Source: an uncultured Pseudomonadales bacterium
GTDB lineage: Bacteria > Patescibacteriota > Microgenomatia > UBA1400 > PJMF01
Assembly (NCBI GenBank): GCA_964625685.1
Contig: CAZVBO010000001.1
Coordinates: forward strand, 69,249-133,248
DNA: 64,000 bases
Direction of reading: 5' to 3'
Positions 469 to 29,572 of the stretch are shown here, piece by piece. A program made the position numbers and the translations under genes. Below the pieces are notes generated by a model. That model worked only from the letters and a program-made list of their open reading frames with translations, did no database searches and was not told the origin of the DNA. Every line of letters starts with the position of its first letter. Positions within the stretch are counted from its first letter, which is position 1.

Positions 469-499
469 TCATTGTTGCAGATTATGCAATAATAGACAC

Positions 500-11693: not shown

Positions 11694-11694
11694 T

Positions 11695-14034
11695 ATGCAA
11701 ATGGCAAATCCAGATCTTCTTCTAGCAAAATTGGTGACATGGCTGTTTTCAGCGGTAATAGTGTTGGGTCTGCTCTTAATTGTGGCACTCTGTTTTTATT
11801 TACTTTTTCAATGGTTTAAGCATCGCAATCGTGAATCATATGCTCTTGATTTTGTAACTCTGCTTATTCGATTGCCTCGTGATAATGAGATTAAGATTGA
11901 TGCTGCCGAACAAATGTTTTCGGCTCTCTACTCGTTGAAGAAAAAAGGATGGTTTTCGTGGATGAAAGCTGAGGATATGTTTGCTTTTGAGATTGTAGCT
12001 CTTAAGGAAGATATTGCCTTTTATGTGAGTTGCCCTCGGAAATTGCGGGACATGGTGGAAAAGCAGATCAATGGGGCTTATCCAATGGCTGAGATTAAAG
12101 AAGTAGATGAAGTGAATATTTTTTCAGAGAATGGAAAAGTTGAGTTCACTTCTATTAAACTAGACAAAGCTAATTATTTCCCTCTAAAAACATATAAAGA
12201 ATTACCAACTGATGGTTTATCTCTGGTTACTTCGGCTCTGTCGAAATTGAGTGATGGAGAAGGAGCCATGATTCAAGTTTTGATTCAACCTGCTTCAAAG
12301 AAGTGGCAGAAGCAAGGGCGATCCTATGTAGCTAACGAGAAAAAACGAGAAGCTGATCCTGAAAAAGCTACCTATGGTCATGATCCTAAAGAAATGGAAG
12401 CAGTGACGGGCAAGACGGAAAAACCTGGGTTTCAAGTCTCTATCAGAATTGTGGTTTCGTCACCCAATGAGTACTCGGCTCAATCGCACTTAAGTAACAT
12501 TGTAGGTGCTTTTGCTCAATTCGGTTCTGCTTATAACTCTTTCAAGCGCAATAAAGTTATCTTAAAACACTTCTTTATGATTGATTTTATTTATCGGTAT
12601 ATGCCTATGTTTGGACGGGGAACCTCAGTTCTCAGTTCAGAAGAGTTGGCTACTATCTTTCACCTACCCAATAAAACTGTCGAAACTCATCATATCCAGT
12701 GGTTAAATGCCAAAAATGCACCGGCTCCGAATAATATTCCCAACGATGGTCTTTTCTTGGGGACCTCTGTTTACCGAGGGGAAAGACGCAATATTTACAT
12801 TGGAACCAATGACCGGCGTCGTCACATGTATATTGTAGGAAAGACTGGTACGGGTAAATCTGAGTTTCTGAAAGAGATGATTTTACAAGATATTGAAAAG
12901 GGAAATGGAGTCTGCGCGATTGACCCACACGGTGAATTTGTGGAAGATATTTTACAGTTAATGCCACCCGAAAGAGCAGAAGATGTTATTTACTTCAATC
13001 CTTCAGATTTAGATCGACCTATGGGGATGAATATGATGGAAGCAGATACCGAAGAGCAGCAACATTTTGTGGTCAGTTCAGTTATTGGATTGATGTACAA
13101 ATTGTATGATCCTCATCGCACTGGGATTATTGGACCCCGGTTTGAACATGCCATTCGAAATGCTATGTTGACTATTATGTCACGCGAGGGGGGAACCTTT
13201 ATTGAAATGGTTCGGGTGTTAACGGATCAGAAATTTGTGGAAGAATTATTACCCTATGTCAAAGATCCGGTGGTTAAACGCTACTGGACTGATCAAATTG
13301 CTCAAACCTCTGATTTTCATAAATCAGAAGTCTTAGACTATATTGTGTCAAAATTTGGTCGGTTTGTGACCAATAAAACCATGCGTAATATTATTGGTCA
13401 ACAAAAAAGTGCCTTTAATTTCCGCAAAGCGATGGATGAGAAAAAGATTATTTTATGTAACTTATCCAAAGGTATTTTAGGTGAAGAAGATGCTAAATTT
13501 TTAGGATTAATTTTGGTCCCGAAAGTACTAACAGCTGCCATGAGTCGTCAGGATGTGCCAATGGAACAACGGCATGATTTTTATCTCTATGTCGATGAGT
13601 TCCAGAACTATGCAACGGAAGATTTTGCGGTTATTTTGGCTGAGGCTCGTAAGTATCGTCTTAATTTGATTGTAGCTAACCAGTATATTGGTCAAATTGA
13701 TGAGGAAGTTAAAAACGCCGTTTTTGGTAACGTAGGAACGATGGTATCTTTCCGAGTAGGAGTAACTGACGCAAACTTTTTGCAACATGAATTTGCACCC
13801 GTGTTTAATGATCATGATCTAGCAAATGTTGAGAAATATCATGTATATATTAAAACTATTGTCAATAATGAACCAGTCCCAGCCTTTAGTATGTCATTGG
13901 AGAAGGATATGGATATAGTTCAAGCGCGGATGAACCCTAAGTTAGCTGAAATGATCAAACAACTTTCTCGCTTAAAATATGGTCGAGATCGGCAATCAGT
14001 TGAAGAAGAAATGGCGGTGAGAGCAAGATTGTAA
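11695..14034 (+). CDS. VirD4/TraD/TraG-like type IV secretion coupling-protein-family P-loop ATPase with N-terminal TM anchor
   Basis: Walker A GKTGTGKSEF is followed by CAIDPHGEF. A Walker B-like YLYVDEFQNY is followed by EARKYRLNLIVANQYIGQI. The N-terminal TM helix is LVTWLFSAVIVLGLLLIVALCFYLLF. Confidence 0.55.
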   Translation: MQMANPDLLLAKLVTWLFSAVIVLGLLLIVALCFYLLFQWFKHRNRESYALDFVTLLIRLPRDNEIKIDAAEQMFSALYSLKKKGWFSWMKAEDMFAFEIVALKEDIAFYVSCPRKLRDMVEKQINGAYPMAEIKEVDEVNIFSENGKVEFTSIKLDKANYFPLKTYKELPTDGLSLVTSALSKLSDGEGAMIQVLIQPASKKWQKQGRSYVANEKKREADPEKATYGHDPKEMEAVTGKTEKPGFQVSIRIVVSSPNEYSAQSHLSNIVGAFAQFGSAYNSFKRNKVILKHFFMIDFIYRYMPMFGRGTSVLSSEELATIFHLPNKTVETHHIQWLNAKNAPAPNNIPNDGLFLGTSVYRGERRNIYIGTNDRRRHMYIVGKTGTGKSEFLKEMILQDIEKGNGVCAIDPHGEFVEDILQLMPPERAEDVIYFNPSDLDRPMGMNMMEADTEEQQHFVVSSVIGLMYKLYDPHRTGIIGPRFEHAIRNAMLTIMSREGGTFIEMVRVLTDQKFVEELLPYVKDPVVKRYWTDQIAQTSDFHKSEVLDYIVSKFGRFVTNKTMRNIIGQQKSAFNFRKAMDEKKIILCNLSKGILGEEDAKFLGLILVPKVLTAAMSRQDVPMEQRHDFYLYVDEFQNYATEDFAVILAEARKYRLNLIVANQYIGQIDEEVKNAVFGNVGTMVSFRVGVTDANFLQHEFAPVFNDHDLANVEKYHVYIKTIVNNEPVPAFSMSLEKDMDIVQARMNPKLAEMIKQLSRLKYGRDRQSVEEEMAVRARL

Positions 14035-14042
14035 AGTCTTAC

Positions 14043-15818
14043 TTATCTTAACGTATCAGATAGCAGTTGGTAGTTAATAACAGATACGGGAACAAGACTA
14101 TTTTCACTAGAGTTCGGATCAAAAATTGTAGAATCAATGTTAAGTTGATCAGTATATTTTGAAATTTCTATAGGAAGGTCTGTGATAAGTCTAGTTTTTT
14201 GTTCTGTTAGAGAAAGTAATTTATAGTCATCTCGATTTAGTAATTGTTGGGCAATCAATAAAAGTATTCCTCCCAAAGCTCCTGATGATTCACTACTACT
14301 TTCAAAATCATTTCTATCGAAGTAAATATCAGGACGATAAGAAGAAGCTTGGTTGGTACTTATATAAAATCCGACTAGGATTAAATTGGGTGGTTTTATC
14401 TCTCCCTCCAACTCAAGCTGTTTCATAGCTTGGTCGAAGAAACTACCATAGTTTCCAGCCGCAGCTACAATAAGCTTGTCGGGGTTATGAGAAGCAACAT
14501 AGTACATGTCTTTGAGACCTTGATATGCATTTTCTCCTTGATAGCCCTCAGTGATGTTGGGCAGAGGATGTTCATTCTGTGTTAAAACTGGCTGGAGTTG
14601 ATCATATTGTTCTTGGGTGAGCAAATCACTAGCGGTGATTTGTTTTCGTACAGTTAACTGGGCAGGGAATTGGGCCTCATTACTTTGATCATACTCAAGT
14701 TGCGCCAAATTCCTCATGATTCGAGGATTGGCCCGACTCATTCTCTGATAGTACCCGCTTTCCTGACCTAACGTTTGATATTGATACTTGTCTTTATCAA
14801 AAAACTCAGTTGGAAGAAGTTCAGTGTATTCACGAATTGATAAAAAGGGGCTTTGTGCCAAAAGATGCTGATACTCAGGGTTATCAGAGGTAATTATCTC
14901 GGTTTGTGCAACTGAATACCATTCGCCATCTTGACCATAATCAGAATTTAAAGTTGTTTCAATTTGAGCGACATGATCTCCAGCAGTCGCGTGTCCTGGC
15001 TGAGTAGCTAAATTTTGGGCAGAGTCTTGAATAGAAGTTTCGAGTGAACCATCAGCAAAGAATAATAGTTCTTCTGGAGAATAGAGTGTTTCTCCCTGAA
15101 TGGAATATTCTATATAAGTCTGTTTGGGGTCACGTTCTGATTGTAGTTGGAGGGAAATTGAGTTTTTACCCATTAAAAAGGGTAAAACTGCAATAAATTG
15201 ATCAGCTTTTTGTAAAAAATTTGAGACTAACTCGGGACTAAGGCTGAATGACAAGATAGGATTCCCAAACGAATCGCGGTTAAATTTTGCTTCTCGAATT
15301 GCGTTTTCCACTGGGTAAACTGGCGACGGGGCAAGTTCTCTGCTGCCTCCCAGATCTCGTAAAACCGAATCAGTTACTACTTGTACCACTTGATTATGTG
15401 AAGCATAGGTTTTTTTAATTGAGGCAAGAAGTTGCGTGAGAGCATACTGATCATCAGAAAGAAGCCTCTCTTGATCTATAGGTTGATCTGGTTGCAGATT
15501 TTCTAAATCAAGAGCTAGACTCATTTGAGAATTGAGGAATTCAACCAAATTTTTTGTTACTTCTGATGAAATATCAAGGTAACTAATCCATTCATCTTTT
15601 GGTAACTCTAATTCTGGGGTGCGGGGTGCTTGTTCTAGTTTTGCAGCAGAGACTGGTCTTGTATCTCTTGGGAGCACGGCTTCTCCCGCTACAATTCCCA
15701 TGATTTTTAAAAAATTTCTTCGGGTTACTCCATTGAATAATTTTCGAGTTTTTCCTTCAAATGTTGGTTTCTGAGGTTTACAGTCAGTTTTTGGAGGAAA
15801 AGAAGTTTCGTTAGTCAT
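14043..15818 (-). CDS. hypothetical secreted protein with twin-arginine (Tat) signal
   Basis: The N-region is followed by TRRNFLKIMGIVAGEAVLP, an exact S/T-R-R-x-F-L-K Tat consensus plus a hydrophobic h-region. No catalytic motif was recognised. Confidence 0.5.
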   Translation of the reverse strand: MTNETSFPPKTDCKPQKPTFEGKTRKLFNGVTRRNFLKIMGIVAGEAVLPRDTRPVSAAKLEQAPRTPELELPKDEWISYLDISSEVTKNLVEFLNSQMSLALDLENLQPDQPIDQERLLSDDQYALTQLLASIKKTYASHNQVVQVVTDSVLRDLGGSRELAPSPVYPVENAIREAKFNRDSFGNPILSFSLSPELVSNFLQKADQFIAVLPFLMGKNSISLQLQSERDPKQTYIEYSIQGETLYSPEELLFFADGSLETSIQDSAQNLATQPGHATAGDHVAQIETTLNSDYGQDGEWYSVAQTEIITSDNPEYQHLLAQSPFLSIREYTELLPTEFFDKDKYQYQTLGQESGYYQRMSRANPRIMRNLAQLEYDQSNEAQFPAQLTVRKQITASDLLTQEQYDQLQPVLTQNEHPLPNITEGYQGENAYQGLKDMYYVASHNPDKLIVAAAGNYGSFFDQAMKQLELEGEIKPPNLILVGFYISTNQASSYRPDIYFDRNDFESSSESSGALGGILLLIAQQLLNRDDYKLLSLTEQKTRLITDLPIEISKYTDQLNIDSTIFDPNSSENSLVPVSVINYQLLSDTLR

Positions 15819-16353: not shown

Positions 16354-17562
16354 TTACTCGTAACGCAGTGCTTCAATGGGGGATAGGTCAGCAGCTCGTT
16401 TAGCAGGTGCAGCTCCAAACACTAATCCCACTACTGTCGAAACGCCAAAGGCTAGGGTGACTGCTTCCCAGGTGACTTTGACCGGGAAATAAATTTGTAA
16501 CGCTAAGGAACCTAAATAGGCAATACCTAAGCCAATCAATCCGCCAAAGACCGATAAGAGGGCTGCTTCGATCAGAAATTGAGCCAAAATGGTGTTTGGA
16601 GTAGCACCAAGTGCTTTTCTCAGTCCAATTTCACGAGTACGCTCCGTAACTGAGACCAACATAATATTCATGATTCCAATGCCACCCACAACTAGAGAAA
16701 TGGCCGCAATTCCACCCAAACTAATAGTCAGCACTCCTAAAATTTGATTGATGGTATCAAGAATTTGGGTTTGATCGAAAACGCTAAATTCATCTTCATC
16801 TAATTCTTTTTCCAGTGTTTTTTCCACTGCCTTTTTAGCTTGAGAAATCTCATCCTTACTACGAACTTCGACCAGGATGTTATCGATTAATTCAAAGTTG
16901 AAGTCACTAAACAGGGTATGAAGTGGCACGTAGATGTAATTATCGAAACTTGGTCCTCCAAAACCGCCACCTTTTTCTTCAAGAACTCCCAGAACTTCAT
17001 AACTTTTGCCTTCAATTTTAATTTCTTTATGTACTGGATCAACATCACCAAATAATTCTTCCGCAATTTTTTCCCCCAAAAGGACTACTCGTGCTTTTTT
17101 ATCATCATCAAGCTCAGTGAACCACTCTCCAGTGGCCGCATTAAAATTTTGGATTTCATGATAAGAAGCGGTTGCCCCAATAATAGTAGTTTTTTTAGTA
17201 GTTTCTCGATATTTTGTTTCTCCGACATTCACGGCACTGATAGCTCCGTTTTTAAGCAAATCACGATTATTTCTGAGAATGAGATCTAAATAACGTTCTT
17301 TGAGAACTGGTTTGGTGCTTTCAATCACACTTTCTTGACCTGAAAAACCGCCATTTTCACCAAATGGATTTCCCGGAACAATATAGAGAATATTACTCCC
17401 TAAACTGGCAAATTGATCCTCTACATAGCTTTGTAAGCCAGTACCAATACTAGTCAATAATACTACCGAACCCACTCCAATAATGACACCCAACATAGTG
17501 AGAAAAGAACGACTTTTATTGTTTAACAAAGCCCTGACAGCAATATAAAAAGTAGTTTTCAT
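16354..17562 (-). CDS. ABC transporter permease, FtsX/MacB family
   Basis: The N-terminal TM, large periplasmic loop and C-terminal 3-TM FtsX domain are all present, including ...RTREIGLRKALGAT... The ORF overlaps the upstream ATPase gene by 4 nt. Confidence 0.85.
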   Translation of the reverse strand: MKTTFYIAVRALLNNKSRSFLTMLGVIIGVGSVVLLTSIGTGLQSYVEDQFASLGSNILYIVPGNPFGENGGFSGQESVIESTKPVLKERYLDLILRNNRDLLKNGAISAVNVGETKYRETTKKTTIIGATASYHEIQNFNAATGEWFTELDDDKKARVVLLGEKIAEELFGDVDPVHKEIKIEGKSYEVLGVLEEKGGGFGGPSFDNYIYVPLHTLFSDFNFELIDNILVEVRSKDEISQAKKAVEKTLEKELDEDEFSVFDQTQILDTINQILGVLTISLGGIAAISLVVGGIGIMNIMLVSVTERTREIGLRKALGATPNTILAQFLIEAALLSVFGGLIGLGIAYLGSLALQIYFPVKVTWEAVTLAFGVSTVVGLVFGAAPAKRAADLSPIEALRYE

Positions 17563-18281
17563 GATCGATGCTTTTTCAAGATTTTATCAATATCTTTCAA
17601 ACCGTTAATAGTTTCATCAGCGCGGATAACCCCATCGCGTAAGAGTAAAAATCGTTTAGCAATGCTCGCATCATCAGCCTCGTGTGTGACCATAATTATA
17701 GTTTTTCCTTCTGCATGAAGATCGAGTAAAAGTTGTTTAACATCTTCACTGGCTTTGGTATCTAAGTTTCCGGTGGGTTCATCTGCAAAGATAATACTGG
17801 GTTCATTAATTAAAGCTCGAGCGACCGCGACTCGCTGCTGTTGTCCTCCGGAAAGTTGAGCTGGTGTGTTGTGTAAACGATCCCCCAAGCCAACTCTTTC
17901 CAGCATAACTTGAGCGCGTCGTTTTCGAGCTGATTCGCCTACTCCAGCATAGACCAAAGGCAGGGCAACATTGTCGAGTGCCGAAGTTCGAGCTAATAAA
18001 TTAAATTGTTGAAAAATAAATCCAATTTCTTTATTTCTTAAATGGGCTCGTTCAACTTCATCATAGAGAGTGACATCTTTATCCTTGAGTAAGATTTTTC
18101 CGGAAGAGGGTTGGGCTAACATACTGGAAACTTGCAAAAAGGTAGACTTGCCAGATCCTGATGGGCCCATGACTGACATAAACTCACCTTCCGGCACCTC
18201 CAAATTGATGTCTTTAAGAGCGTGCAGGGTTTGTCCACCTAAAGTGTATTTTTTGCTAACCTGTTTGAGCGTTAATAACAT
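17559..18281 (-). CDS. ABC transporter ATP-binding protein (MacB/LolD-type)
   Basis: Walker [10 protein letters not shown], the ABC signature [10 protein letters not shown] and Walker B IIFADEPT are all present. Confidence 0.9.
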
Positions 18282-18282
18282 A

Positions 18283-19335
18283 CTACTCTGGAATCAAAAC
18301 TTGGTCATCAGTGGTTAAACCAGAGGTGACTTCAATTTTGTCATCTGTTTCTAAACCGGTGGTAATTTCTCGTTCTTCATATGTATTCTCACCTGTTTTT
18401 ACATCTACATAGGTTTTATCATCCCGTTCTCGAGTGGCATCAACCGGAATGCTTAAAACCTGAGGTTTAGACTCGACAATTAAAGAAATGTCTCCATTCA
18501 TTCCAATTTTGTATTTAGTCAAATCTTGGCTTTCAATGGGAAATTCAACCACAAAAACGGTTCCAGTGGAGGATTGACTACTGGAAAATGAAATGTAATT
18601 CACTTTGGTATGAATTATTTCATCAGGATAAGCATCCAACTCCAAATCTGCGGGCTGATCCAAACTAACTTGAGAAATATCAGCCTCATCAATGGCTGCT
18701 TTAAAAATTAAAGTCTGTGGATTCACTAAATCAAACGTGTCACCAGCTGTGAGCTGGACTCCAGGAACATTCGTCGGACTTTTAATTAATACCCCGGCAA
18801 ATGGGGCATAGAGAGCATTATTTTTAATTGCAATATCTCGAATTTCTACATTCAGAACCTGGTTTTCTAAATTCCAATGTTCCTGATCTACTTGACGTTG
18901 CTCTTCCTGAGGAAGGGTTCGATCTTCGGTGTCATCTAAAGTTTGCTCCCAATCCCAGCGTTCTTTCATGTAGTTGTTGAGATCTTGTTGAAGTTGTTTT
19001 TCCAAAGCCGCTTTATCGACGGAAGCTATAGTCTGCCATTTTTTGACCCAGTCACCTTCTTTGGCGCCTAAATATACCACTTTTCCACCTGCTAAAAAGC
19101 GCATGCTAGCTTTTTCTTTAGCATCAATGATTCCGGAAACATCCAGGGTTTTAGTTAGATCTTCTACTTGGGGGTGTTCGAATGTAAGTTCAGTTTTGTT
19201 ATTTTGTTTTCGGGAAAAGTAAATTCCAACAATTCCTAGAATCACTAATACTAAAAGAACGAGTTTCCACCGTCTTTTAAGCCAGTTGAAAATATTTTTT
19301 ACTATTCGTTTCAGTTTTGACATAACCTGTATCAT
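18283..19335 (-). CDS. efflux periplasmic adaptor (membrane fusion protein, HlyD/MacA family)
   Basis: An N-terminal TM anchor, a coiled-coil region and a beta-barrel/lipoyl-like C-terminus are present, upstream of the ABC pair. The start was trimmed to ATG 19335 so that it does not run into the tRNA. Confidence 0.7.
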   Translation of the reverse strand: MIQVMSKLKRIVKNIFNWLKRRWKLVLLVLVILGIVGIYFSRKQNNKTELTFEHPQVEDLTKTLDVSGIIDAKEKASMRFLAGGKVVYLGAKEGDWVKKWQTIASVDKAALEKQLQQDLNNYMKERWDWEQTLDDTEDRTLPQEEQRQVDQEHWNLENQVLNVEIRDIAIKNNALYAPFAGVLIKSPTNVPGVQLTAGDTFDLVNPQTLIFKAAIDEADISQVSLDQPADLELDAYPDEIIHTKVNYISFSSSQSSTGTVFVVEFPIESQDLTKYKIGMNGDISLIVESKPQVLSIPVDATRERDDKTYVDVKTGENTYEEREITTGLETDDKIEVTSGLTTDDQVLIPE

Positions 19336-19413: not shown

Positions 19414-19487
19414 GCGCGCATAGCTCAATTGGTTAGAGCACAAAGCTTATACCTTTGCGGTTCTAGGTTCGAGTCCTAGTGCGCGCA
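19414..19487 (+). tRNA. tRNA-Ile, anticodon UAU (DNA TAT)
   Basis: The 74-nt sequence folds as a cloverleaf. The acceptor stem is GCGCGCA/TGCGCGC. The D-arm is GCTC-AATTGGTTA-GAGC. The anticodon arm is CAAAG-CTTATAC-CTTTG with U33 and A37. The T-arm is CTAGG-TTCGAGT-CCTAG. No CCA is encoded. Confidence 0.75.
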
Positions 19488-20670: not shown

Positions 20671-21125
20671 TTACAGAATAATTAGCATACTGGCAATACC
20701 CAGCAAGACGGTGCCGATTCCAATGCCTAAGATCTTCAAACCATCGTTGAGACCAGTTTGAGGTAATTGCTCTGGCAGAGTGGGTTGCTGGGCTGGAGCA
20801 GGATTGCCGGCAATGGTAGCTGCAGTACAAGTGGCACTGTTGACATTGGAATCCAATCGGCACCGGCCATTCCAGCAGATGTAACTGGAATTATTACAGT
20901 CGGCATTATTGACACAAGTGTCATTACAGCCAATTGGAGCAGCTGGAGTAGGAGTGGGATTGACGAGTACACAATTGGTTGAGTCACAGGTAGCTCCACT
21001 GATCAGACACGAATCGTAAACACAGCGGCCACTACTACAAGTGTGATTGCTGGGACATTCTGCATTGGTAGAACAAGTATCATTACAGACTTTAGTCATA
21101 GTAGGTGTAGGAGTTACTCCAGGTG
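20671..21125. repeat. About 450-nt direct duplication (~85% nt identity) shared by the 3' ends of genes 20671-21990 and 24239-26050 (second copy at 24239-24695)
   Basis: The nucleotide strings align across this stretch, from ...ggcaatacccag(c/t)aagac(g/a)gt(g/t)cc(g/a)attccaat... through to ...gtatcattaca... Confidence 0.75.
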
Positions 21126-21990
21126 TTGGTGTTATTCCTGGCGTTGGTGTTGGGGTAGTTTTTGGTGTACATTTATCACTTTCACAACTAGCAGCATCAT
21201 CTAAACATTGGTTGAGTACACAGACATTATCGCTACATGTGTGATTAGTGGGACATTGAGAGTCGGCAGTACAGCTTTCACCACAAGCGTTGGAGGTAGT
21301 AACAGTTACTGTAGTCTGGCAACTAGTGGTGAGACTGTTTTCAGTTGAGGTAACATTAGCCGTATTGATGATATTTGTATCGTTGCTGACGGAGCTATTG
21401 ATTTTGACTCGGAAAGCCACTGAATTATCTTGATCTACATCTTGTTGATCACAAATGAGGGTTTTTGTTGAATCATTGTAGGCCTCTTCCCCACAAGTGG
21501 AGTCCAAGAAAGTGACACTACTATCGAGAACATCACTGAGATTAAACGTCAGTGTGGTAATTCCTGATGAGATCATGGCAATTTTATAAACCACAGTATC
21601 ACCTGGGTTAAAGGTTGATTTCTGAGTTAGAAGTGAGTAACTTCCTGCAGAGTTACTGAGTTCATCTTGATAGGCAGTTTTGGTACAACTTAAAGTTGGT
21701 GTTTGAGTTCCCGCAACTACAAAACTTAAGCTACAATTGCCGCTCCCTTCTTCTGAAGCTTGAGATTCACTGGGGGTGGTTGTATAGGTTGTTTGGATTC
21801 GTTGCATTAATGCGACATAGACTCCCACCATCGCTAAAACCAAGAAAGAAGTCAATCCAATCACAGTTAAGATAGCTCGTCGATCAACTCCAAATAGCTT
21901 TTTTTGAGGCTTCATTCCAGGGTTATTTTTCAAAGTTGGAGTAGCTTTGGTGTAATTTGCCTGGGTGGTTGAGTTAGATTCGTTTATCAT
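20671..21990 (-). CDS. cysteine-rich modular surface protein with C-terminal LPQTG sorting signal (paralog A)
   Basis: An N-terminal signal-anchor is followed by (TP)n linkers. Three 8-Cys modules follow, for example CNDTCSTNAECPSNHTCSSGRCVYDSCLISGATCDSTNCV. The C-terminus is LPQTGLNDGLKILGIGIGTVLLGIASMLIIL. Confidence 0.7.
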   Translation of the reverse strand: MINESNSTTQANYTKATPTLKNNPGMKPQKKLFGVDRRAILTVIGLTSFLVLAMVGVYVALMQRIQTTYTTTPSESQASEEGSGNCSLSFVVAGTQTPTLSCTKTAYQDELSNSAGSYSLLTQKSTFNPGDTVVYKIAMISSGITTLTFNLSDVLDSSVTFLDSTCGEEAYNDSTKTLICDQQDVDQDNSVAFRVKINSSVSNDTNIINTANVTSTENSLTTSCQTTVTVTTSNACGESCTADSQCPTNHTCSDNVCVLNQCLDDAASCESDKCTPKTTPTPTPGITPTPGVTPTPTMTKVCNDTCSTNAECPSNHTCSSGRCVYDSCLISGATCDSTNCVLVNPTPTPAAPIGCNDTCVNNADCNNSSYICWNGRCRLDSNVNSATCTAATIAGNPAPAQQPTLPEQLPQTGLNDGLKILGIGIGTVLLGIASMLIIL

Positions 21991-21995
21991 AGTTG

Positions 21996-24113
21996 TTAGT
22001 TCGCAATGCTTTCAAAATCATGACACTGGGTAGTACCACTGACACTGGTACAGATCCGACACTGAGCGATGTATTTACCTGACTGAGTTAGGGTAAATGG
22101 TGAGGAAAGATGATTTCCAGCTCCTTCTTGATAGTTCACTGTGCCATCTGGATAAATAAGTCGGAAGTCATATCGACTGACTCCGTTGACTTGACCACAA
22201 CTCAAGGCCACTTGTTGATTAAGAGCTGGGGTGGCTACTGCTTGACCTTGAGTGTTCACCAAACTTACATTCAAGCAAATTGGCCCAACTGGTGGATTTT
22301 CCGGAACATCTTCATCTTGATCTGCCGGAGTTTGGACTTGAGTGGTACCTTGACAGGGTCCACTACAGTTATATTCGGAATAGCCACAATATGATCCCCA
22401 ATCATTGGCAGTAGTATAGAGATCAACCTGACCACATGCCCCATTCAAAGAAAGAGGAGTAGATGAGTATTCGGCGTTTTCATAACAACGGTACAGTCCA
22501 TCACTATCCTGACGACAGCCATTAGGACAGGTAAACTTCACATACTGAGCTACCGACTGGTTTGACTTTGCCGGATCGGTACACATGTTGGCTCCACCTG
22601 CTGCATTGTTTTGAGCTCCACCAGCATTGGCAGTAGCTGCCCCTTCACACTGTTGTTTGGTACCACTGAATACTGGAGATTCATTTACTCCACACAAGAC
22701 CTTATACTGACCATTAATACAGCAAGGACCGTGTTGAGCCCCTTCACAAAGACCCATATAAACTACTTCTCCGCCTCGATTTCGACAAGCTTCGCCACTA
22801 GAGTATTTTGAATAGGTAGGAGATTCACCAGTATTCATTTCGGCATTGGCCGACAAGTTACAACAAACTTCGGAAGAAGAAGCAACACACGTACAGCTCG
22901 CATCACTCCAAGTGTTGCCGGCATTTTCACAAACCGTTTTATTGGTATTATACGTTGCTCCAAGTTGAGCCTCGCAGGTATTTGCAGCAGTGACACAACT
23001 ACATGTATTCTGATTCCATACTTTTCCTGCTGTCGTATTACACGAGGCCACAGCCGCATTATACTCTCCCTCGGTTCTGAATTTATCTTGACAAGAATAA
23101 AAACCACTAATATGTTGCTGGCAACCTAGTTGGGTAGAATAGGTCGTACTGGAACAAGGGTGAGTATTAGCACTACAGTGATCTTGGGTAGAGTAACACT
23201 TGTTATCAACTCCTACACAGTATTGTTGAGCATCACTCCAGGTATGTCCGCCATTTTGACAAACGGCTTTTTTACAAGCTACTTGACTGGTATAAAGAGC
23301 TGTAAAGGCCTCACAAGTAGCTCGAGCCGCATCTGTCACGGAGTTTGTTTGGGGACTACAGTTGGTCGCCGAATTGTAACAGGTAATTTCCAAGCGGGTA
23401 TTACATACCTCTCCTCTGGTTTTAATTCTGCCGTACTCAACCCCACTGTTACACCGACAGAAGTTGTAGTTACAAGTACTCCCCGAAGCAATGCTGGCTG
23501 GGTTATTCTGAGTATAACCGGTAGGGTTAGTGTTCGTGTTGGTATTCGTATTATTATTGTTAGTATTCGTGTTGGTATTAGTATTGGTGTTATCGCTAGT
23601 GCCACAGGCTTGGCCGGTGGGAATTTCACCTGATCCATCATCAAGACAGCGGACAATTTGATGCATGCCCTCGTTACAGCGTGTAGCGCCAGGACTGCAG
23701 GCAAGAGGTTGGTCGTTATAAACCACACAAGGCCCGACTCTTCCGCCCGAGCCGGTACAGGCTGCCGCAGCCGCAGCCGTGTTTTGTCCCGAGGCTACAC
23801 CGTTGTAACCTCCTCGGCAACAAGTAATCACCACATTGCCATTGCCATCAGTGATGACATCCCCAGGTTCATTTTGAACTGCTGCCTGCTGGCGGATATC
23901 CTGTGATTGCCGCACTAACAGAAAAGCAATACTTCCCCCAATCACCAAAAGAAGTAATAAAGCACCACTGATAAGGTACCTGAGATTTCTTTTGGGTGAG
24001 GGGGGTTTCATAGCTATCTTTTCTTTTGGCTGATGATTTGAGTCTTCCGGAGGGGGAGTAATAGGAGAAGAGGTGGGCTGAGGCGATAAAGGTGAAGGAT
24101 TAGCGTTTATCAT
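21996..24113 (-). CDS. large cysteine-rich secreted/membrane-anchored protein (paralog B) with an (NT)n low-complexity tract
   Basis: The N-terminus MINANPSPLSPQP... plus TM helix is homologous to the N-terminus of paralog C. The 705-aa protein contains about 70 Cys. Its C-terminal third contains the MCTDPAKSNQSVAQYV...PLSLNGACGQVDLYT...GSYCGYSEYNC module, which is found at the N-terminus of paralog C. Confidence 0.65.
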   Translation of the reverse strand: MINANPSPLSPQPTSSPITPPPEDSNHQPKEKIAMKPPSPKRNLRYLISGALLLLLVIGGSIAFLLVRQSQDIRQQAAVQNEPGDVITDGNGNVVITCCRGGYNGVASGQNTAAAAAACTGSGGRVGPCVVYNDQPLACSPGATRCNEGMHQIVRCLDDGSGEIPTGQACGTSDNTNTNTNTNTNNNNTNTNTNTNPTGYTQNNPASIASGSTCNYNFCRCNSGVEYGRIKTRGEVCNTRLEITCYNSATNCSPQTNSVTDAARATCEAFTALYTSQVACKKAVCQNGGHTWSDAQQYCVGVDNKCYSTQDHCSANTHPCSSTTYSTQLGCQQHISGFYSCQDKFRTEGEYNAAVASCNTTAGKVWNQNTCSCVTAANTCEAQLGATYNTNKTVCENAGNTWSDASCTCVASSSEVCCNLSANAEMNTGESPTYSKYSSGEACRNRGGEVVYMGLCEGAQHGPCCINGQYKVLCGVNESPVFSGTKQQCEGAATANAGGAQNNAAGGANMCTDPAKSNQSVAQYVKFTCPNGCRQDSDGLYRCYENAEYSSTPLSLNGACGQVDLYTTANDWGSYCGYSEYNCSGPCQGTTQVQTPADQDEDVPENPPVGPICLNVSLVNTQGQAVATPALNQQVALSCGQVNGVSRYDFRLIYPDGTVNYQEGAGNHLSSPFTLTQSGKYIAQCRICTSVSGTTQCHDFESIAN

Positions 24114-24238
24114 GAATTTTTTCTAAGCAAAATGTACTCATCTCTAAGAATACTGCACTTTTTAAACTCAGGTCAATAATAGATTTTAATTTTTTACTTG
24201 TCCGAAACTTAATTTTAGCTGAAATGAAGGACGAGCCT

Positions 24239-26050
24239 TTATAGAATAAGGAGTAAACTGGCAATACCCAGTAAGACAGTTCCAATTCCAATTCCCAGAA
24301 TCTTGAACCCATCATTCAAACCAGTTTGAGGTAATTGCTCTGGTAAAACTGGTTGCTGGGCTGGAGCAGGACTCCCTGCGATGGTGGCAGCAGTGCAAGT
24401 AGTACTATTAACATTGGAATCTAACCGGCACTGACCATTCCAGCAGATGTAACTGGAATTATTACAGTCAGCATTGTTGACGCAGGTATCGTTACAACCG
24501 ACCGCAGCTGGAGGGGTAGGAGTAGGATTGACCAGCACACAATTGGTAGAGTCACAAGTTGCTCCGCTCAAGAGACAAGAATTATACACACAGCGACCAT
24601 TAGAACAGGTATGATCACTGGGGCATTCAGCATTAGTGGTACAAGTATCATTACAAGCCTTAGGGGTTGGAGTAGGGGTGGGACTAGCTGATGGGCTGGG
24701 TGTTGGCGTCGGCGTTGGAGTCGGAGTAGGAGTAGGTGTTGGGGTAGGAGTAGGTGTTGGAGTTGGGGTGGGTGTTGGGGTGGGGGTAGGAGTGGGTGAG
24801 AGTGAACATGAAACAGCCACATCGTTAGCAACTCCCTCTGGATCAGTCGGATTTACAGAAATAGTCCGAGAAACCCCACCACACGCTGCTTGAATTAAGG
24901 TATAGGCTTTAATATGGTGCATATACACCGATCCGGTTATACCTCCGGCAATATTGAGGACACCCACACCTTCGGTTCTAGGTGAATAGTTTTGCCCAAA
25001 TGTATCAATTTGACAATTACTCTTGGCTGCCCATGAAACTACTACTGATGAATCATAAGGAATGATAATAGGATTAGTGTGGTGATTGGTGGTTCGTCCA
25101 TTGACTAAAACGGTGGGAATTGGCTTTCCCTCACTCGTTACATCTTCAGAGGAATATGGCAGAGCTGGGTGTGGATCTGGAATAGTGGTGGAAGAAATTG
25201 GTCCTACTGTGGCAGTTACCCAATCTGAATAGCAAGTCACATTACTATCCATTTGTCCTTTAGCCCGAATTCGATACTGACCCTCTCGTAAGCCGGTAAT
25301 AATAGTAGAAGTGGGATTGCCTACACGTTTAAGAGAAGCGGGACTGACAGCAGCAATATTTCCAGTTGTTCCAGTGGTAATATTTTGATATTCAAAATTA
25401 ACTGTTTGAACTTTGTGATCATCTTTACCTTCTCGAGTCACACGGGCTGTTGCCAAGATAGTTCCACAAATAGGAATGGTAGGGATACTGTCTAAACTAA
25501 TAGAACAATAGATCTCACCTTCGACTGGTTGACCCTCGTTTCCCGGAGGCGTTGTAGTGTCAGCTCTACAGCCCTCACCACAGTTATATTCTGAATAGCC
25601 ACAATATGAACCATTGTCATCAGCTACGGTATAAAGGTCTACTTGGCCACATTGACCATTAAGGGATAAAGGCTCAGAAGATTTTGTCTCAAGTTCATAA
25701 CATCGGTAAATTCCGTCATTATCTTTGGTACAACCATCGTTACAGACGTATCTCACATATTGGGCTACTCTTTGATCAGATTTAGCAGGATCAGTACACA
25801 TACCACCTGAGGCGCGTTGTCTCACATCTTGACTAGTTCTCATCAAGTAAAACGCTACCAAGCCTCCTAGTATGAGTAATAACAAAATACCTCCACTTAG
25901 GAGATACTTCCAAGTATTTCTCTTTTTTGTGGATTTGATGGGTGGATAAGAGTTTGGTGGTGTTTGAGGGGCTTGTGTTTCCTCAACTGGCATCACTGGA
26001 GACGAATTGGAAACTGGAGGAGTTAAAGGTGTTTGGTTAGCATTAATCAT
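24239..26050 (-). CDS. cysteine-rich modular surface protein with (TP)29-like linker and C-terminal LPQTG sorting signal (paralog C)
   Basis: The order of elements is: N-terminal anchor, the MCTDPAKSDQRVAQYV... module, two beta-sandwich-like regions, a long PTPTPT... linker, two 8-Cys modules and LPQTG plus a hydrophobic tail. Confidence 0.7.
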   Translation of the reverse strand: MINANQTPLTPPVSNSSPVMPVEETQAPQTPPNSYPPIKSTKKRNTWKYLLSGGILLLLILGGLVAFYLMRTSQDVRQRASGGMCTDPAKSDQRVAQYVRYVCNDGCTKDNDGIYRCYELETKSSEPLSLNGQCGQVDLYTVADDNGSYCGYSEYNCGEGCRADTTTPPGNEGQPVEGEIYCSISLDSIPTIPICGTILATARVTREGKDDHKVQTVNFEYQNITTGTTGNIAAVSPASLKRVGNPTSTIITGLREGQYRIRAKGQMDSNVTCYSDWVTATVGPISSTTIPDPHPALPYSSEDVTSEGKPIPTVLVNGRTTNHHTNPIIIPYDSSVVVSWAAKSNCQIDTFGQNYSPRTEGVGVLNIAGGITGSVYMHHIKAYTLIQAACGGVSRTISVNPTDPEGVANDVAVSCSLSPTPTPTPTPTPTPTPTPTPTPTPTPTPTPTPTPSPSASPTPTPTPKACNDTCTTNAECPSDHTCSNGRCVYNSCLLSGATCDSTNCVLVNPTPTPPAAVGCNDTCVNNADCNNSSYICWNGQCRLDSNVNSTTCTAATIAGSPAPAQQPVLPEQLPQTGLNDGFKILGIGIGTVLLGIASLLLIL

Positions 26051-26063
26051 GTCTATTAAAAGG

Positions 26064-27599
26064 CTATGCTGGATACCTCTCTTCTTTCAGCTCATTGGCA
26101 ATCCAGAAGCTCCAACCCCCGGCAATGATAAAGAATAAGCCTCCTACGAGTAAAACTAAAGTCGTACTGACGGAACCAGAGACGGGCAAACTACTACTGG
26201 TAGCAGGTTGAGAAGAGCGAGTAGCAATGGTAGAGCTGGAAGAAGCAGTTGCCTTAGGAGTCGGTGAGGGTGAAGCTGAAGCGGTTCCCTCCATAGGATA
26301 GGGATTTCCTGTTCCATAGGGCCCACTGGTAGAAGTGGTTGTCGTGCTAGCAAGTTGGGTATTTGCTGAAGGATCCTCAACGGTAAAGGTAGTAGTTTTG
26401 GTTACTTCTTTACCGGTATTTGGATCAGTATACGTGTAAGTAACGGTATGTTCTCCCGGTTCTAAGTTTTGGCTGAGTTTACTAATATCTAGGACAAACT
26501 CACCATTTTCATCTGCGGTAATTTCCTGAGTAATGGTGGTATCAGAATGAACCTCAATATTAACTGTGACATTTGGAGCAGCTTTACCTTTAATTGTAGG
26601 TTGACTGGTGGCTACTTTTTGTTCGGTAGTGAGATCGGTATCTACAATCATATTGGTGGTACTAGCTGGCGTGTCCGCTAATAAACTAGTAAGTTCTCCT
26701 GAGGTTCCTGCGGAATCACTAGCGGTAGAATCAGTCATCATTGTTTCTGTAGAGTCACTGGCAGTCATAGTGGTGTCTTCCATAGCAGTAGCCTCTAGAC
26801 TAGTAGTGTTAGTGTCACTAGTCATCGTATTGTCAGGGACAATACTGACGTTGTTTTGACCTAATGTAATGGTAGGAACAGGTTGAGACTGAGCGATAGT
26901 AGTCGTAAGGGAAGAGGTTGAATTTACTGCTGGTCCTTGAACATTGATTAACATGGTTTGGTCATCGGTTAGCGTGGCATAGCCACTCCCATCACTGGTT
27001 CGAGCATTGGACAAAGGTATAGCCCAACTTCCTGAGTTTTTGACTAGAGAAGACATTTCTCCCACTCCTTCAATAGTGACATATACTACTGAGCCTTCTG
27101 CCGGACCGCCACTTTCATTTAGGACGTTTCCGTAAGCCGTTTTAGCAGCTGAGGGAGCTCCACTTCGCTTGGTAGTAGTGACCTTAAAGGCTTGACCATT
27201 ATTATCAAAGGTATTGCGGGAACCGGTACCCAAAAGATAATAATAAGTAGTATTAGCTTGAAGGCCTCGAACGGTAATATGGTGAACATTGAATTCTCCG
27301 ACTGAACCAGAAAGCTGGTCTCGGTCATCACTGGCTTGGGATTTCGTGGAATTTTCTTCTTCGCCATATTTGACGAAACCGGCTGTTTTGTCTGAAGTAA
27401 CAAAAGAAATAGTAAAGCTACTATCGGTAATATTAGTAACTTTTATTTTTTGGGGAGTAGTTTCGGCTGTGGCTCGGGGAGCAAATACTCCGGGACCACC
27501 TCCAATAGTAGTGACATACACACCAGCCATCAAGGCGATGACTAAAATGCCGATACCAATAAAAGTGGGGAGCCGTTTTTGCCAGATTGATTTATTCAT
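26064..27599 (-). CDS. Ser/Thr-rich surface protein with FN3-like domain, C-terminal LPVSG-TM-KEER tail
   Basis: An N-terminal TM helix is followed by an FN3-like domain (VTNITDSSFTISF...YYYLLGTG) and long S/T tracts. The C-terminus reads SSLPVSGSVSTTLVLLVGGLFFIIAGGWSFWIANELKEERYPA. Confidence 0.6.
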   Translation of the reverse strand: MNKSIWQKRLPTFIGIGILVIALMAGVYVTTIGGGPGVFAPRATAETTPQKIKVTNITDSSFTISFVTSDKTAGFVKYGEEENSTKSQASDDRDQLSGSVGEFNVHHITVRGLQANTTYYYLLGTGSRNTFDNNGQAFKVTTTKRSGAPSAAKTAYGNVLNESGGPAEGSVVYVTIEGVGEMSSLVKNSGSWAIPLSNARTSDGSGYATLTDDQTMLINVQGPAVNSTSSLTTTIAQSQPVPTITLGQNNVSIVPDNTMTSDTNTTSLEATAMEDTTMTASDSTETMMTDSTASDSAGTSGELTSLLADTPASTTNMIVDTDLTTEQKVATSQPTIKGKAAPNVTVNIEVHSDTTITQEITADENGEFVLDISKLSQNLEPGEHTVTYTYTDPNTGKEVTKTTTFTVEDPSANTQLASTTTTSTSGPYGTGNPYPMEGTASASPSPTPKATASSSSTIATRSSQPATSSSLPVSGSVSTTLVLLVGGLFFIIAGGWSFWIANELKEERYPA

Positions 27600-27700: not shown

Positions 27701-27872
27701 TCAAAGTTCAAAAATCCAAACAAGTTTAAAGCCAGCCCAAGGCTGGTCCGTCTTGGACGGAAATAAAGAAGAAAGAATAAAAAGGGTTAAAGATATACAG
27801 GGATAAAGCTAAAAGCCTAAAACTGAATTCTGAATTTTGTTTGAAATTTGGATTTTGAGTTTTGAGCTTTTA
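27701..27872. repeat. Intergenic A/T heptad repeat locus R2: CAAA-arm (27701-27730), two GC hairpins (27731-27760), TTTG-arm (27826-27872)
   Basis: The left arm is caaagttcaaaaatccaaacaagtttaaag. It is followed by gccagcccaaggctggtc and ccgtcttggacgg. The right arm is gaattttgtttgaaatttggattttgagttttgagc. Confidence 0.55.
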
Positions 27873-27885
27873 AAATATCAAGCTT

Positions 27886-28320
27886 CTATTGAGTGATATC
27901 TCCACTCTCAGTGACTATTGGTGTCTCCTCAAGCTGAGCTTCTGGAGTGGGACTAGGCTCAACTGTTGGAATAGGAGTTGGGGTGGGTGAAGCTTTGGTA
28001 TAGACATCATCACTCACATCAATAGTGACCTTGGATTCACTTCGACCATCAGCTGAAGGGACCAATTTATAGATGGGAAAGTTAGCTAAGTCAGCTGGGG
28101 TGAAAAATTCCTTTTGTTCTAGTTGCGCAATAACGGTTTCATCAATATTGGGATTAATACTTTGGGCTGCTTTTTTAAGTTCCGCTGAAATACTTGAAGA
28201 GCGCTGAGACCGAAAAAGTTCAAAAGCCACCCACACTACTATAGTAATAAGTGAGAATAATAGAATTTGAAGAATTCTCTGTCGTTGATGAAGTTGATGT
28301 AAGTTTTTTTGAGTGGTCAT
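27886..28320 (-). CDS. hypothetical membrane-anchored protein (possibly PilP-like)
   Basis: It has a single N-terminal TM helix and a PT-rich C-terminus. It sits last in the murJ-pilN-pilO-like gene string. Confidence 0.4.
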   Translation of the reverse strand: MTTQKNLHQLHQRQRILQILLFSLITIVVWVAFELFRSQRSSSISAELKKAAQSINPNIDETVIAQLEQKEFFTPADLANFPIYKLVPSADGRSESKVTIDVSDDVYTKASPTPTPIPTVEPSPTPEAQLEETPIVTESGDITQ

Positions 28321-28323
28321 GAT

Positions 28324-28953
28324 TTATTTCTTGATATCAGTTGAATTTTCAATTCCAAAATAGGGCAGATTAACCGTAATATTAGCCTTCAACTGTTTAT
28401 TATTGTTGACCTCACTGACGGTAAAGATAATGGAGTCTACAAATAAAGTGCGACGGTTTCGCTGGAGACTTTCTACAAAATTACGGATGGCTAGGTAGTC
28501 CCCAGTTACGGAAACGTTAATTGGGACGGTGATTTTTGTTTTTTGGGAAAAAGGTATGGTCTCATCTGCTTCTTGAGGAATTTCATTTACCTGCATAGAG
28601 GTAATCACTAACTCATTGTCACTGGCTGTTTTTTCAATAATTTTTAAGGCATTTTCGAATTCAGGTTGTGAGGGGAGTGCTTGATCTAAGACAAATAATC
28701 GATCTTGTAAATTGAGATATTGAGTCTGAGCAGTCGCCAATGAAGCCGTCTTTTGACGCAATTGCTCATTAAGGTTGGTTTTGTCTTCAATTTCTTTAAT
28801 CAAATCTGACATGGTCAGTAAAGTGGGCCGAATAGCAAAGAGAGCAAAAAACATGACTGCTCCAATGGATAAAAACAATTCCAAAGAAACCTTAGCCACG
28901 GGTTGGTTATAAAACTTGATGAGGGTGGTTCGTATTTCTCGTTGAGTTGGCAT
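28324..28953 (-). CDS. PilO-like type IV pilus assembly protein
   Basis: The short cytoplasmic N-terminus, TM helix, coiled-coil and roughly 100-aa periplasmic domain give a PilO-like architecture. The ORF is adjacent to the PilN-like gene with only 1 nt between them. Confidence 0.5.
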   Translation of the reverse strand: MPTQREIRTTLIKFYNQPVAKVSLELFLSIGAVMFFALFAIRPTLLTMSDLIKEIEDKTNLNEQLRQKTASLATAQTQYLNLQDRLFVLDQALPSQPEFENALKIIEKTASDNELVITSMQVNEIPQEADETIPFSQKTKITVPINVSVTGDYLAIRNFVESLQRNRRTLFVDSIIFTVSEVNNNKQLKANITVNLPYFGIENSTDIKK

Positions 28954-28954
28954 T

Positions 28955-29572
28955 TTATAATCCTTGAGTTCGATCTAACAAACCTTGCTGTGATTCAACT
29001 TGATTGGTGGTGGTCTGTTTTAAAATTGCTTCGCTGGTTCTGGCATGAATTCGAAAGTGAAAACCAGGGTCTTTGGCATCACCAGTTTCAATCTTATCGA
29101 CACTGACATTAAAGAAATCCGATGAAAGTTGCAAGTTATTAATAAGCAAGCTCAATGATTCATTGGAATAGGCCGTACCAGCAAGACTGACCGTATCAGT
29201 TTTAATTGTTAACTCATCCAAACGGATACTGGTAGGAGTAATAGCACTTAATTTAGGAAAGACCTCAGCAATGTTAGTTTGCTGAGAGATTTGTTTGTAC
29301 TGTTCAATTTTTTGCTGAACCTCTTTAACATTTTCTTCCAAGTCTCCATAGGAATTAATAACAGTTTGTTTTTGATAAATGGATTCGTTCAAATCAGTAA
29401 CCTGGCGATCTAGGCTAAAACGCGTCACAAAACTAATAATTACAATCAGCTCAGTAAAAATAACGATATATCTGCCTACCGATAACGCCCATTGCAAAAC
29501 TTTACCCAGTGGGGTTTCAAAAAATGGATCTTTGGGAACCAAGTTAATGTTGACGTCGGCAGGCTTTTTCAT
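28955..29572 (-). CDS. PilN-like type IV pilus assembly protein
   Basis: The N-terminal NINLVP segment matches the PilN INLLP motif. It is followed by a TM helix, a coiled-coil and a periplasmic domain. Confidence 0.55.
   Translation of the reverse strand: MKKPADVNINLVPKDPFFETPLGKVLQWALSVGRYIVIFTELIVIISFVTRFSLDRQVTDLNESIYQKQTVINSYGDLEENVKEVQQKIEQYKQISQQTNIAEVFPKLSAITPTSIRLDELTIKTDTVSLAGTAYSNESLSLLINNLQLSSDFFNVSVDKIETGDAKDPGFHFRIHARTSEAILKQTTTNQVESQQGLLDRTQGL

Follow-up and report, generated by a model that had tools for sequence, protein, structure and literature searches.

The described systems closest to the locus studied here are the sortase-anchored fibrillar adhesins and pilins of Gram-positive bacteria (BcpA, EbpB/EbpC, SpaD and AgI/II), and the MdbA/VKOR-dependent sortase substrates of actinobacteria, such as Actinomyces oris FimA. 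The former combine an export signal, Ig-like stalk domains (CLIPPER/DUF11 or CnaA/CnaB), low-complexity spacers and an LPxTG motif followed by a hydrophobic segment, and have no enzymatic domain; in fibrillar adhesins the stalk may contain CLIPPER, which is CnaA-like and often holds an isopeptide bond (bioRxiv 10.1101/2025.04.25.650565). The latter are exported, wall-anchored proteins that fold via extracytoplasmic disulfides. In Patescibacteria (Candidate Phyla Radiation, CPR), a sortase is reported from more than half of the members, and from nearly all Microgenomates, and MdbA-like oxidoreductases are reported to be enriched, with VKOR often encoded adjacent (PMC6744442). Here we describe a locus of four surface-protein genes, three of them cysteine-rich, in a 64-kb stretch of contig CAZVBO010000001.1 (the whole stretch analysed, hereafter the window). 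With moderate confidence, we favour the reading that this locus is a lineage-specific, fast-diversifying cassette of cell-surface proteins in a Patescibacteria bacterium, which probably serve to adhere to another cell or surface or to recognise it.

The locus comprises four consecutive open reading frames (ORFs), termed A to D:

20671-21990, minus strand: gene A, 439 amino acids (aa), 27 Cys
21996-24113, minus strand: gene B, 705 aa, 51 Cys, no C-terminal anchor
24239-26050, minus strand: gene C, 603 aa, 28 Cys
26064-27599, minus strand: gene D, 511 aa, 0 Cys

The four ORFs lie exactly where a previous inspection of the bare letters (the sequence-only reading) had placed them, although its count of about 70 Cys in the 705-aa protein was too high. 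The load of 27-51 Cys in A, B and C corresponds to 4.6-7.2% of their residues. Pfam and NCBIfam revealed no catalytic domain in any of the four, in keeping with the earlier view of exported surface proteins without a recognisable enzyme. A, B and C had also been taken for three paralogues. On self-comparison they form a mosaic: the last 166 residues of A are 84% identical to those of C, B aa 501-613 and C aa 77-195 (which contain the "MCTDPAKS" module already recognised in both proteins) share 53% identity, and B and C have N-termini in common, whereas A and B can hardly be aligned and are barely related. In an exact look-up, the products of A and C were not on record as called gene products, and for B the look-up gave no more than three Logan contigs of 3 kb, which break at the A/C repeat. 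B occurs on contigs of the SRR13617031-43 samples.

Protein A resembles the Gram-positive adhesins and pilins in its export signal, its CLIPPER/CnaA-type Ig-like domain (Foldseek E values of 1e-6 to 1e-5), its low-complexity spacers, its LPxTG motif with a hydrophobic segment and the lack of an enzymatic domain. It differs from them in having a single CLIPPER-like domain and not tandem arrays, a long conserved MINA... N-terminal extension, a very high Cys content, and a stalk that consists mostly of small disulfide modules, a rarity among the wall proteins of Gram-positive bacteria. Furthermore, there is no pilin motif or pilus-specific sortase at this locus, and A is paired with an unanchored hypervariable protein, B, that bears two undescribed domains, one of them an 8-Cys domain that we name CGQVD. 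The likeness to the FimA-type pilins would lie in export, wall anchoring and disulfide-dependent folding, and homologous oxidoreductases are enriched in CPR (PMC6744442), but they have one or few disulfides against the 27-51 Cys found here, and an oxidoreductase was not seen in the window. In a full-text literature search, sortase, LPXTG and Candidate Phyla Radiation occurred together only in a type IV secretion review; LPXTG stood beside Patescibacteria terms in none of the top-ranked papers, and the one paper retrieved on cysteine-rich surface proteins was unrelated. We conclude that: i) surface proteins that are probably sortase substrates are to be expected in a CPR bacterium, and ii) what is new is the recurrent pairing of B and A, the disulfide scaffold with its hypervariable region, and CGQVD as a domain without a match.

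Scans of a one-genome-per-species set and of metagenome contigs yielded nine further loci. The query was a trimmed alignment (A2), since the full-family alignment (A1) was too divergent for a genome scan. All six genome-derived loci belong to metagenome-assembled genomes of the Patescibacteria type. The closest relative, L001 (~75% nucleotide identity), has the order D-B-A-HlyD-ABC-FtsX on a contig that starts at gene D, and it is devoid of gene C and of the 363-aa and 591-aa ORFs of the window. L005 reads PilN-PilO-small-D-[A-like]-[B-like]-[A-like], and in L006/L011, L007, L009 and L010/L012 a gene for an unanchored B-like protein directly precedes one or two genes for anchored A-like proteins. 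The succession of B-like and then A-like is seen in the window, L001, L005, L006, L007, L009, L010, L011 and L012. With one or two A-like genes behind the B-like one, the arrangement recurs in at least eight Patescibacteria loci. At least ten relatives have the architecture of A: a signal, a variable domain, a Thr-Pro (TP) linker, Cys modules, the sequence QP.LP.ELPQ[TS]G and a hydrophobic end. Judged by gene order, the conserved unit is the B-like plus A-like gene pair. The locus varies across relatives, a point that the sequence-only reading had proposed to check: gene C is missing from L001, and the first 499 residues of B diverge fast.

The divergence is concentrated in protein B, in which the following regions were distinguished:

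aa 1-77, minus strand: MINA tail, transmembrane (TM) segment and SQDIRQQA, read from the sequence
aa 81-499, nt 22617-23873, minus strand: hypervariable Cys-scaffold region with an (NT)n tract
aa 506-592, nt 22338-22598, minus strand: 8-Cys CGQVD module, common to C aa 84-170
aa 608-705, nt 21999-22292, minus strand: terminal FN3-like domain

Comparison of the window with L001 gives a nonsynonymous divergence (dN) of 0.5-0.6 in B aa 1-499, where amino-acid identity is 41-50% and indels are numerous. The remainder of B (aa 500-705) has a dN of 0.12, as against 0.10 in both A and D and 0.12-0.14 in the genes for ABC and FtsX. These values are read from dN alone, because synonymous divergence (dS) is saturated (>1.5 or undefined), so that faster change, and not positive selection, can be claimed. 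Within B aa 81-499, 32 of the 42 Cys columns (76%) are kept, whereas the other residues are just 40% identical. On this alignment, the region is best described as a conserved disulfide scaffold that carries fast-changing loops. Self-BLAST detected no internal repeats in B.

A word-indexed search had left B as an orphan with one homologue, and a profile of its terminal domain found only 7 short matches by that route. That orphan status did not survive an exhaustive HMMER search against 1.84 billion cluster representatives: B matched at least 172 clusters at E ≤ 1e-3, of which 57 reached E ≤ 1e-10, and in almost every case the match covered aa 500-705 alone. Among the 145 listed representatives of these matches (110 of them full-length), the B-like terminal domain (...AQC[RQ]IC...C..[FW]E) forms the end of 111, the CGQVD module is present in 41, and an LPxTG-like end in just 3; their median Cys content is 6.7%. 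An AlphaFold prediction of B aa 500-705 with 19 homologues gave a mean predicted local distance difference test (pLDDT) score of 83.5, with both domains near 90. In the alignment, the CGQVD module has ten invariant columns, eight of which are Cys, and it had no Pfam match, no PDB sequence match and no significant Foldseek match. According to this high-confidence prediction, CGQVD is an ~85-residue 8-Cys domain without a structural match, and it is absent from current databases. Protein A, by contrast, contains a recognisable domain, with the well-known CLIPPER/DUF11-like stalk fold of adhesins and pilins, and on this point the sequence-only reading is not supported. The parts of A are as follows:

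aa 1-62, minus strand: MINESN tail and TM segment, then an invariant CSLSF motif
aa 96-232, nt 21295-21705, minus strand: CLIPPER/DUF11-like beta-sandwich, from the AlphaFold2 (AF2) model and Foldseek
aa 236-390, nt 20821-21285, minus strand: three small Cys modules with TP linkers between them, from a relaxed-pattern search
aa 403-439, nt 20674-20784, minus strand: LPQTG sorting signal (putative), read from the sequence

The AF2 model of A, built on ten family members, shows a confident beta-sandwich at aa 99-230 (pLDDT ~80-89), and its small Cys modules are confident too. When the sandwich was compared with the PDB by Foldseek, the best match was the CLIPPER (formerly DUF11) domain of 9ifr (E 1.4e-6, TM-score on the target 0.71), followed by the sortase-assembled pilins BcpA, EbpB, EbpC, CppA, SpaD and GBS80 and by the C-domains of AgI/II adhesins. 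In the model, the domain thus has the CnaA-like beta-sandwich fold. A itself matched neither PF01345 nor TIGR01451 in Pfam and NCBIfam, and a PDB sequence search with the sandwich found nothing. One or other of these two families was seen in the relatives P0002, P0005, P0017 and L007: the match of the orthologue P0002 is a weak precomputed one, and those of P0017 (TIGR01451, 9e-12) and L007:8219-10288 (PF01345, 4.5e-8) pass the threshold. Candidate isopeptide residues can be read in A at CTKTA..., ...SDVLD... and ...NTANV.... The model indicates that the beta-sandwich of A is CLIPPER/DUF11-like, the fold of pilins and of fibrillar-adhesin stalks.

Each of the four proteins has one hydrophobic segment near its N-terminus. 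The start of A, B and C (MINESN, MINANP and MINANQ, respectively) is followed by a Pro/Ser/Thr-rich tail and a single TM segment, as the sequence-only reading had it. These N-termini are of a family-wide type:

21883-21990, minus strand: N-terminus of A
23883-24113, minus strand: N-terminus of B
25808-26050, minus strand: N-terminus of C

Across the family the arrangement is MI[ND]A..., a 30-110-aa tail rich in Pro, Ser, Thr and Asn, one TM segment, and then SQD[IV]RQQA (SQDIRQQA in B, SQDVRQRA in C). Of the full-length B-like representatives, 60 of 110 carry Q[DE][IV]RQQA after the TM segment and 37 of 110 start with MI[ND]. The combination MI[ND]A...TM...SQD[IV]RQQA looks like a lineage-specific export signal that has so far gone undescribed.

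At their other end, A and C terminate in LPQTG plus 26 mostly hydrophobic residues. The two ends had been called identical; both do have the motif and the hydrophobic segment, but they differ at 3 positions. In every A-like relative an LPXTG-type pentapeptide (LPQ[TS]G, LPKTG, LPETG or LPVAG) stands equally far from the hydrophobic C-terminus, and the LPQTG is accordingly not coincidental, in line with the earlier proposal. The window also encodes MurJ and two class A penicillin-binding proteins, which indicates that the organism makes peptidoglycan. By these features A and C look like sortase-type surface proteins.

Several points weigh against the reading as a cassette of anchored adhesion or recognition proteins, besides the saturation of dS. 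Unlike the signals of the Gram-positive proteins, those of the A-like tails end in ...MLIIL or ...LLLLL, with no terminal Arg or Lys, and the matches listed for Pfam (E up to 0.1) and NCBIfam (E up to 1) included neither PF00746 nor TIGR01167. Genes for a sortase, DsbA/MdbA or VKOR were not found in the 64-kb window, where Pfam was run on almost all ORFs, or in ~150 kb of related flanks; no window ORF has TLxTC in a plausible context, and no sortase was found in the flanks of the nine related loci with the TLxTC motif, blastp with S. aureus SrtA and Pfam on the neighbours. The published figure for Microgenomates applies indirectly, the single named homologue being from Woesebacteria and the placement otherwise Patescibacteria. 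Finally, the proteins yielded no binding domain or adhesin head whose specificity is known. Since no sortase was seen in the window or flanks and the usual basic tail is missing, wall anchoring of A and C is inferred, with the published prevalence of sortases in CPR as its support.

The missing basic tail in all relatives, the unmatched Gram_pos_anchor and LPXTG-anchor models and the lack of a sortase near any of the nine loci would also fit a different function of these ends. LPQTG plus the hydrophobic segment might be a plain membrane anchor, or a tag for a CPBP/Rce1-like or rhomboid-type protease, in which case A and C would stay in the membrane or be released. An Rce1-like/CPBP intramembrane protease (45942-46682, plus strand; PF02517, E 2.7e-7) is indeed encoded 20 kb away, and it is a conceivable alternative processor of the anchor signal, because the family includes proteases that sort proteins by their C-termini. 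The gene is, however, unlinked to the locus. Moreover, the motif varies (LPQTG, LPQSG, LPKTG, LPETG, LPVAG) exactly as sortase signals tolerate, and it lies directly N-terminal to the hydrophobic segment, as in sortase substrates. Housekeeping sortases (class A, class E) are usually encoded away from their substrates. Sortases are, in addition, reported as very common in CPR (PMC6744442). We consider it unlikely that these ends are something other than sortase signals.

Upstream of gene D, on the same strand, lie genes of the type IV pilus, with MurJ beyond PilN/PilO:

28955-29572, minus strand: PilN-like protein (PF05137, E 4e-13)
28324-28953, minus strand: PilO-like protein (PF04350, E 3e-11)
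27886-28320, minus strand: 144-aa TM/Pro-rich protein
~27759-27732, minus strand: two adjacent short GC-rich hairpins, then a T-rich run, read directly as CCGTCcaaGACGG and CCAGCCttgGGCTGG

The order PilN-PilO-small protein-D-array is kept in the window and in L005, and type IV pili are described as central to CPR-host contact (PMC6744442; PMC11623550); A-D could be accessories of such a pilus, either pilus-associated adhesins or envelope-spanning alignment proteins. We regard this as distinctly improbable. No Pil or pilin Pfam match was obtained in A-D, only the upstream ORFs matching PilN and PilO, and none of the four proteins has a prepilin-type N-terminus. The hairpin pair, which separates the pilN-pilO-small gene block from gene D, looks like a terminator; two GC-rich hairpins can be read there, as previously proposed, but a generic consensus terminator scan made no call at 27732-27759. 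In L006, L007, L009 and L010 (the four checked with Pfam), a phosphoglycerate kinase gene precedes the B/A array, with no pil gene near, so linkage to pil genes applies only to the closest relatives, and at most to D. PilN, PilO and the 144-aa protein are neighbours of the surface-protein genes; nothing found here makes them members of that system.

The intergenic distances within the locus are 13 nt (D-C), 125 nt (C-B) and 5 nt (B-A), and the longest of these has a counterpart in L001:

24114-24238, minus strand: C-B spacer, 125 nt, 83% identical to the D-B spacer of L001, against ~75% in the coding flanks

The four genes had been described as one operon. They are consecutive, but with gaps of 13, 125 and 5 nt and a 125-nt spacer kept in a relative, a single four-gene unit is uncertain, and the C-B spacer may hold a separate promoter or regulatory element for B-A. 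The absence of a Shine-Dalgarno sequence before A-D, formerly presented as a special feature, is uninformative, since ~45 of the 51 window ORFs likewise lack one. The ORF at 47906-50113 (plus strand) has a Shine-Dalgarno sequence (GGAGG); it is not ftsH, a gene named in that context, and encodes a class II (B12-dependent) ribonucleotide reductase, preceded by NrdR. The GC content of the locus (0.42-0.46) is slightly higher than ~0.39. Horizontal transfer as its source was rejected: the residue composition (Cys, Thr, Pro, Gly, Ala) accounts for the difference, and the locus is syntenic in relatives.

The small Cys modules, aligned over 50 sequences, have the consensus CN..C.TN.QC........C....CRL..NP.S..C. 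The exact 8-Cys pattern of the sequence-only reading has one occurrence each in A (aa 302-340) and C (aa 466-504) and none in B; a relaxed pattern finds three modules in A (two with 8 Cys and one with 6) and two in C, so that the modules were correctly attributed to A and C but not to B. No family reaches its threshold with these modules. The most frequent sub-threshold Pfam matches were to DUF7107 (17 of 50), DPY (9 of 50) and EB (7 of 50), the best single-module score for DPY or EB being 21.3 bits against a gathering cut-off of 27. The best PDB profile match was the Dumpy DPY module 1OIG (E 0.0015), with weaker ones to potato carboxypeptidase inhibitor and knottins (E 0.1-0.3). In view of these DPY/EB-type matches the impression of "eukaryote-like" modules is understandable, but the resemblance stays below family thresholds and homology is not shown. 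What the modules have in common with Dumpy DPY (PF21164, PDB 1OIG), nematode EB (PF01683) and DUF7107 is a short C-x3-C-x5-C...C-x4-C spacing and an N-[AS]-[DEQ]-C core. They differ in that all matches are under the gathering scores, in that the bacterial modules exceed those families in length, having 6 or 8 Cys and being extended by a conserved CRLDSNP...C stretch, and in that they sit between the TP linkers of sortase-type proteins. On these alignments, the resemblance to DPY and EB is likely to reflect convergence of small disulfide hairpins. That the modules are knottin-like protease inhibitors or toxins which neutralise host or competitor enzymes is very improbable, because the matches that point this way (the profile matches to the potato metallocarboxypeptidase inhibitor and cystine-knot peptides given above, and weak Pfam matches to CarbpepA_inh, WAP and conotoxin in a few modules) are all below significance, the best match is a structural module of an extracellular-matrix protein, and a place between TP spacers beside a wall anchor is that of a stalk and not of an exposed effector.

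Protein C joins parts of the other two:

aa 1-81, minus strand: B-type N-terminus, TM segment and SQDVRQRA, by similarity to B
aa 84-170, nt 25541-25801, minus strand: 8-Cys CGQVD module, 53% identical to that of B
aa 171-404, minus strand: middle region, no family assigned
nt 24662-24799, minus strand: (TP)16 linker, read from the sequence
aa 464-554, nt 24389-24661, minus strand: two small Cys modules, from the relaxed-pattern search
nt 24242-24352, minus strand: LPQTG sorting signal (putative), read from the sequence

The (TP)n linkers had been noticed before; they are shorter in A than in C. A PDB sequence search with the middle region found nothing, and in a word-indexed search ~14 of the 253 matches of C were real, the remainder being TP-linker noise. 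Since gene C is missing from the syntenic L001, we regard C, from its composition, as a strain-specific chimera of B-type and A-type parts.

Protein D, which has no Cys and contains Ser/Thr-rich linkers, is of the FN3 type, as expected from the sequence-only reading:

aa 48-130, nt 27210-27458, minus strand: FN3-like domain after an N-terminal signal/TM segment (PF16656, E 3e-11; fn3, E 0.008)
aa 335-408, minus strand: second beta-sandwich-like segment
aa 471-511, nt 26067-26189, minus strand: [LI]PVSG, TM segment and charged tail, conserved in orthologues

The FN3-like domain is of the purple-acid-phosphatase N-terminal type (PDB match, E 0.0015). The C-terminus, overlooked earlier, reads LPVSG, TM segment and KEERYPA, and [LI]PVSGSV is conserved in both orthologues, which are 84% (L001) and 50% (L005) identical to D (the latter by BLASTP local alignment; 55% by MAFFT).

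Other genes of the window were recorded alongside. On the downstream side, an HlyD-like/ABC/FtsX transporter of the MacB type (16354-19300, minus strand) lies a few kb from the array in the window and in L001, L006, L008 and L009. The listed start of the HlyD ORF (TTG at 19443) overlaps a tRNA and is probably over-extended. That tRNA (19414-19487) is at once followed by the 363-aa ORF, which extends to 20642 (plus strand), abuts gene A and has no Pfam or NCBIfam match; its absence from L001 suggests a small strain-specific insertion beside the tRNA. The 591-aa ORF (14043-15818, minus strand), also missing from L001, has a twin-arginine-like N-terminus, TRRNFLKIMGIVAG, and no Pfam match. A 794-aa DUF87/TrwB-like ATPase (11650-14034, plus strand), which resembles a type IV secretion coupling protein, is kept near the locus in L001, L006 and L008. 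Near the two ends of the window are a Fic/DOC protein with a helix-turn-helix domain (407-1597, plus strand) and a tyrosine recombinase of the phage-integrase family (60214-61080, plus strand).

The data show the structure of the genes, their domain architecture and distribution, two domain folds, synteny and faster divergence; disulfide bonds, sortase processing, the partnership of B with A, and adhesion are inferred from these. If the locus is a surface-protein cassette, as we favour, its products might work as follows. All four would be exported via the N-terminal hydrophobic segment, which in A, B and C lies behind the MINA... Pro/Ser/Thr-rich tail. Their cysteines would be oxidised outside the cell, giving disulfide-knotted modules, and a housekeeping sortase would cut A and C at LPQT|G and join them to peptidoglycan. 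The (TP)n spacers would hold the distal domains off the wall, i.e., the CLIPPER-type sandwich in A, and the 8-Cys module with the unassigned domains in C; together with the knotted modules, these spacers could form a protease-resistant stalk. B may be kept by its N-terminal segment or be released. Since a B-like gene always adjoins A-like genes, B would most likely be a variable ligand-recognition protein or binding partner of the anchored A-like proteins. D might belong to this surface layer too, as a conserved FN3 protein of the membrane or wall.

A more specific form of this scheme, which is rather doubtful, is that the B/A pair is a Patescibacteria-specific host-recognition system. B would dock via its CGQVD domain and FN3-like end onto the anchored A/C stalks, and gain, loss and recombination of cassette genes, as in C, would set or shift the host range, and the system would rely on an export signal not described before and on a sortase signal that departs from the canonical form in having no basic tail.

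The means by which ultra-small episymbionts find and grip their hosts are largely unexplained, and mainly type IV pili have been implicated so far. From uncultivated Patescibacteria, the locus supplies testable candidates in the form of a recurrent gene pair that encodes an anchored and a hypervariable surface protein. It also contributes three features absent from current databases, namely the 6/8-Cys stalk module, the CGQVD domain and the conserved pair of export and anchor signals. If the anchoring and binding roles are true, such features would help to predict, from CPR genomes, how strains vary and interact with hosts.

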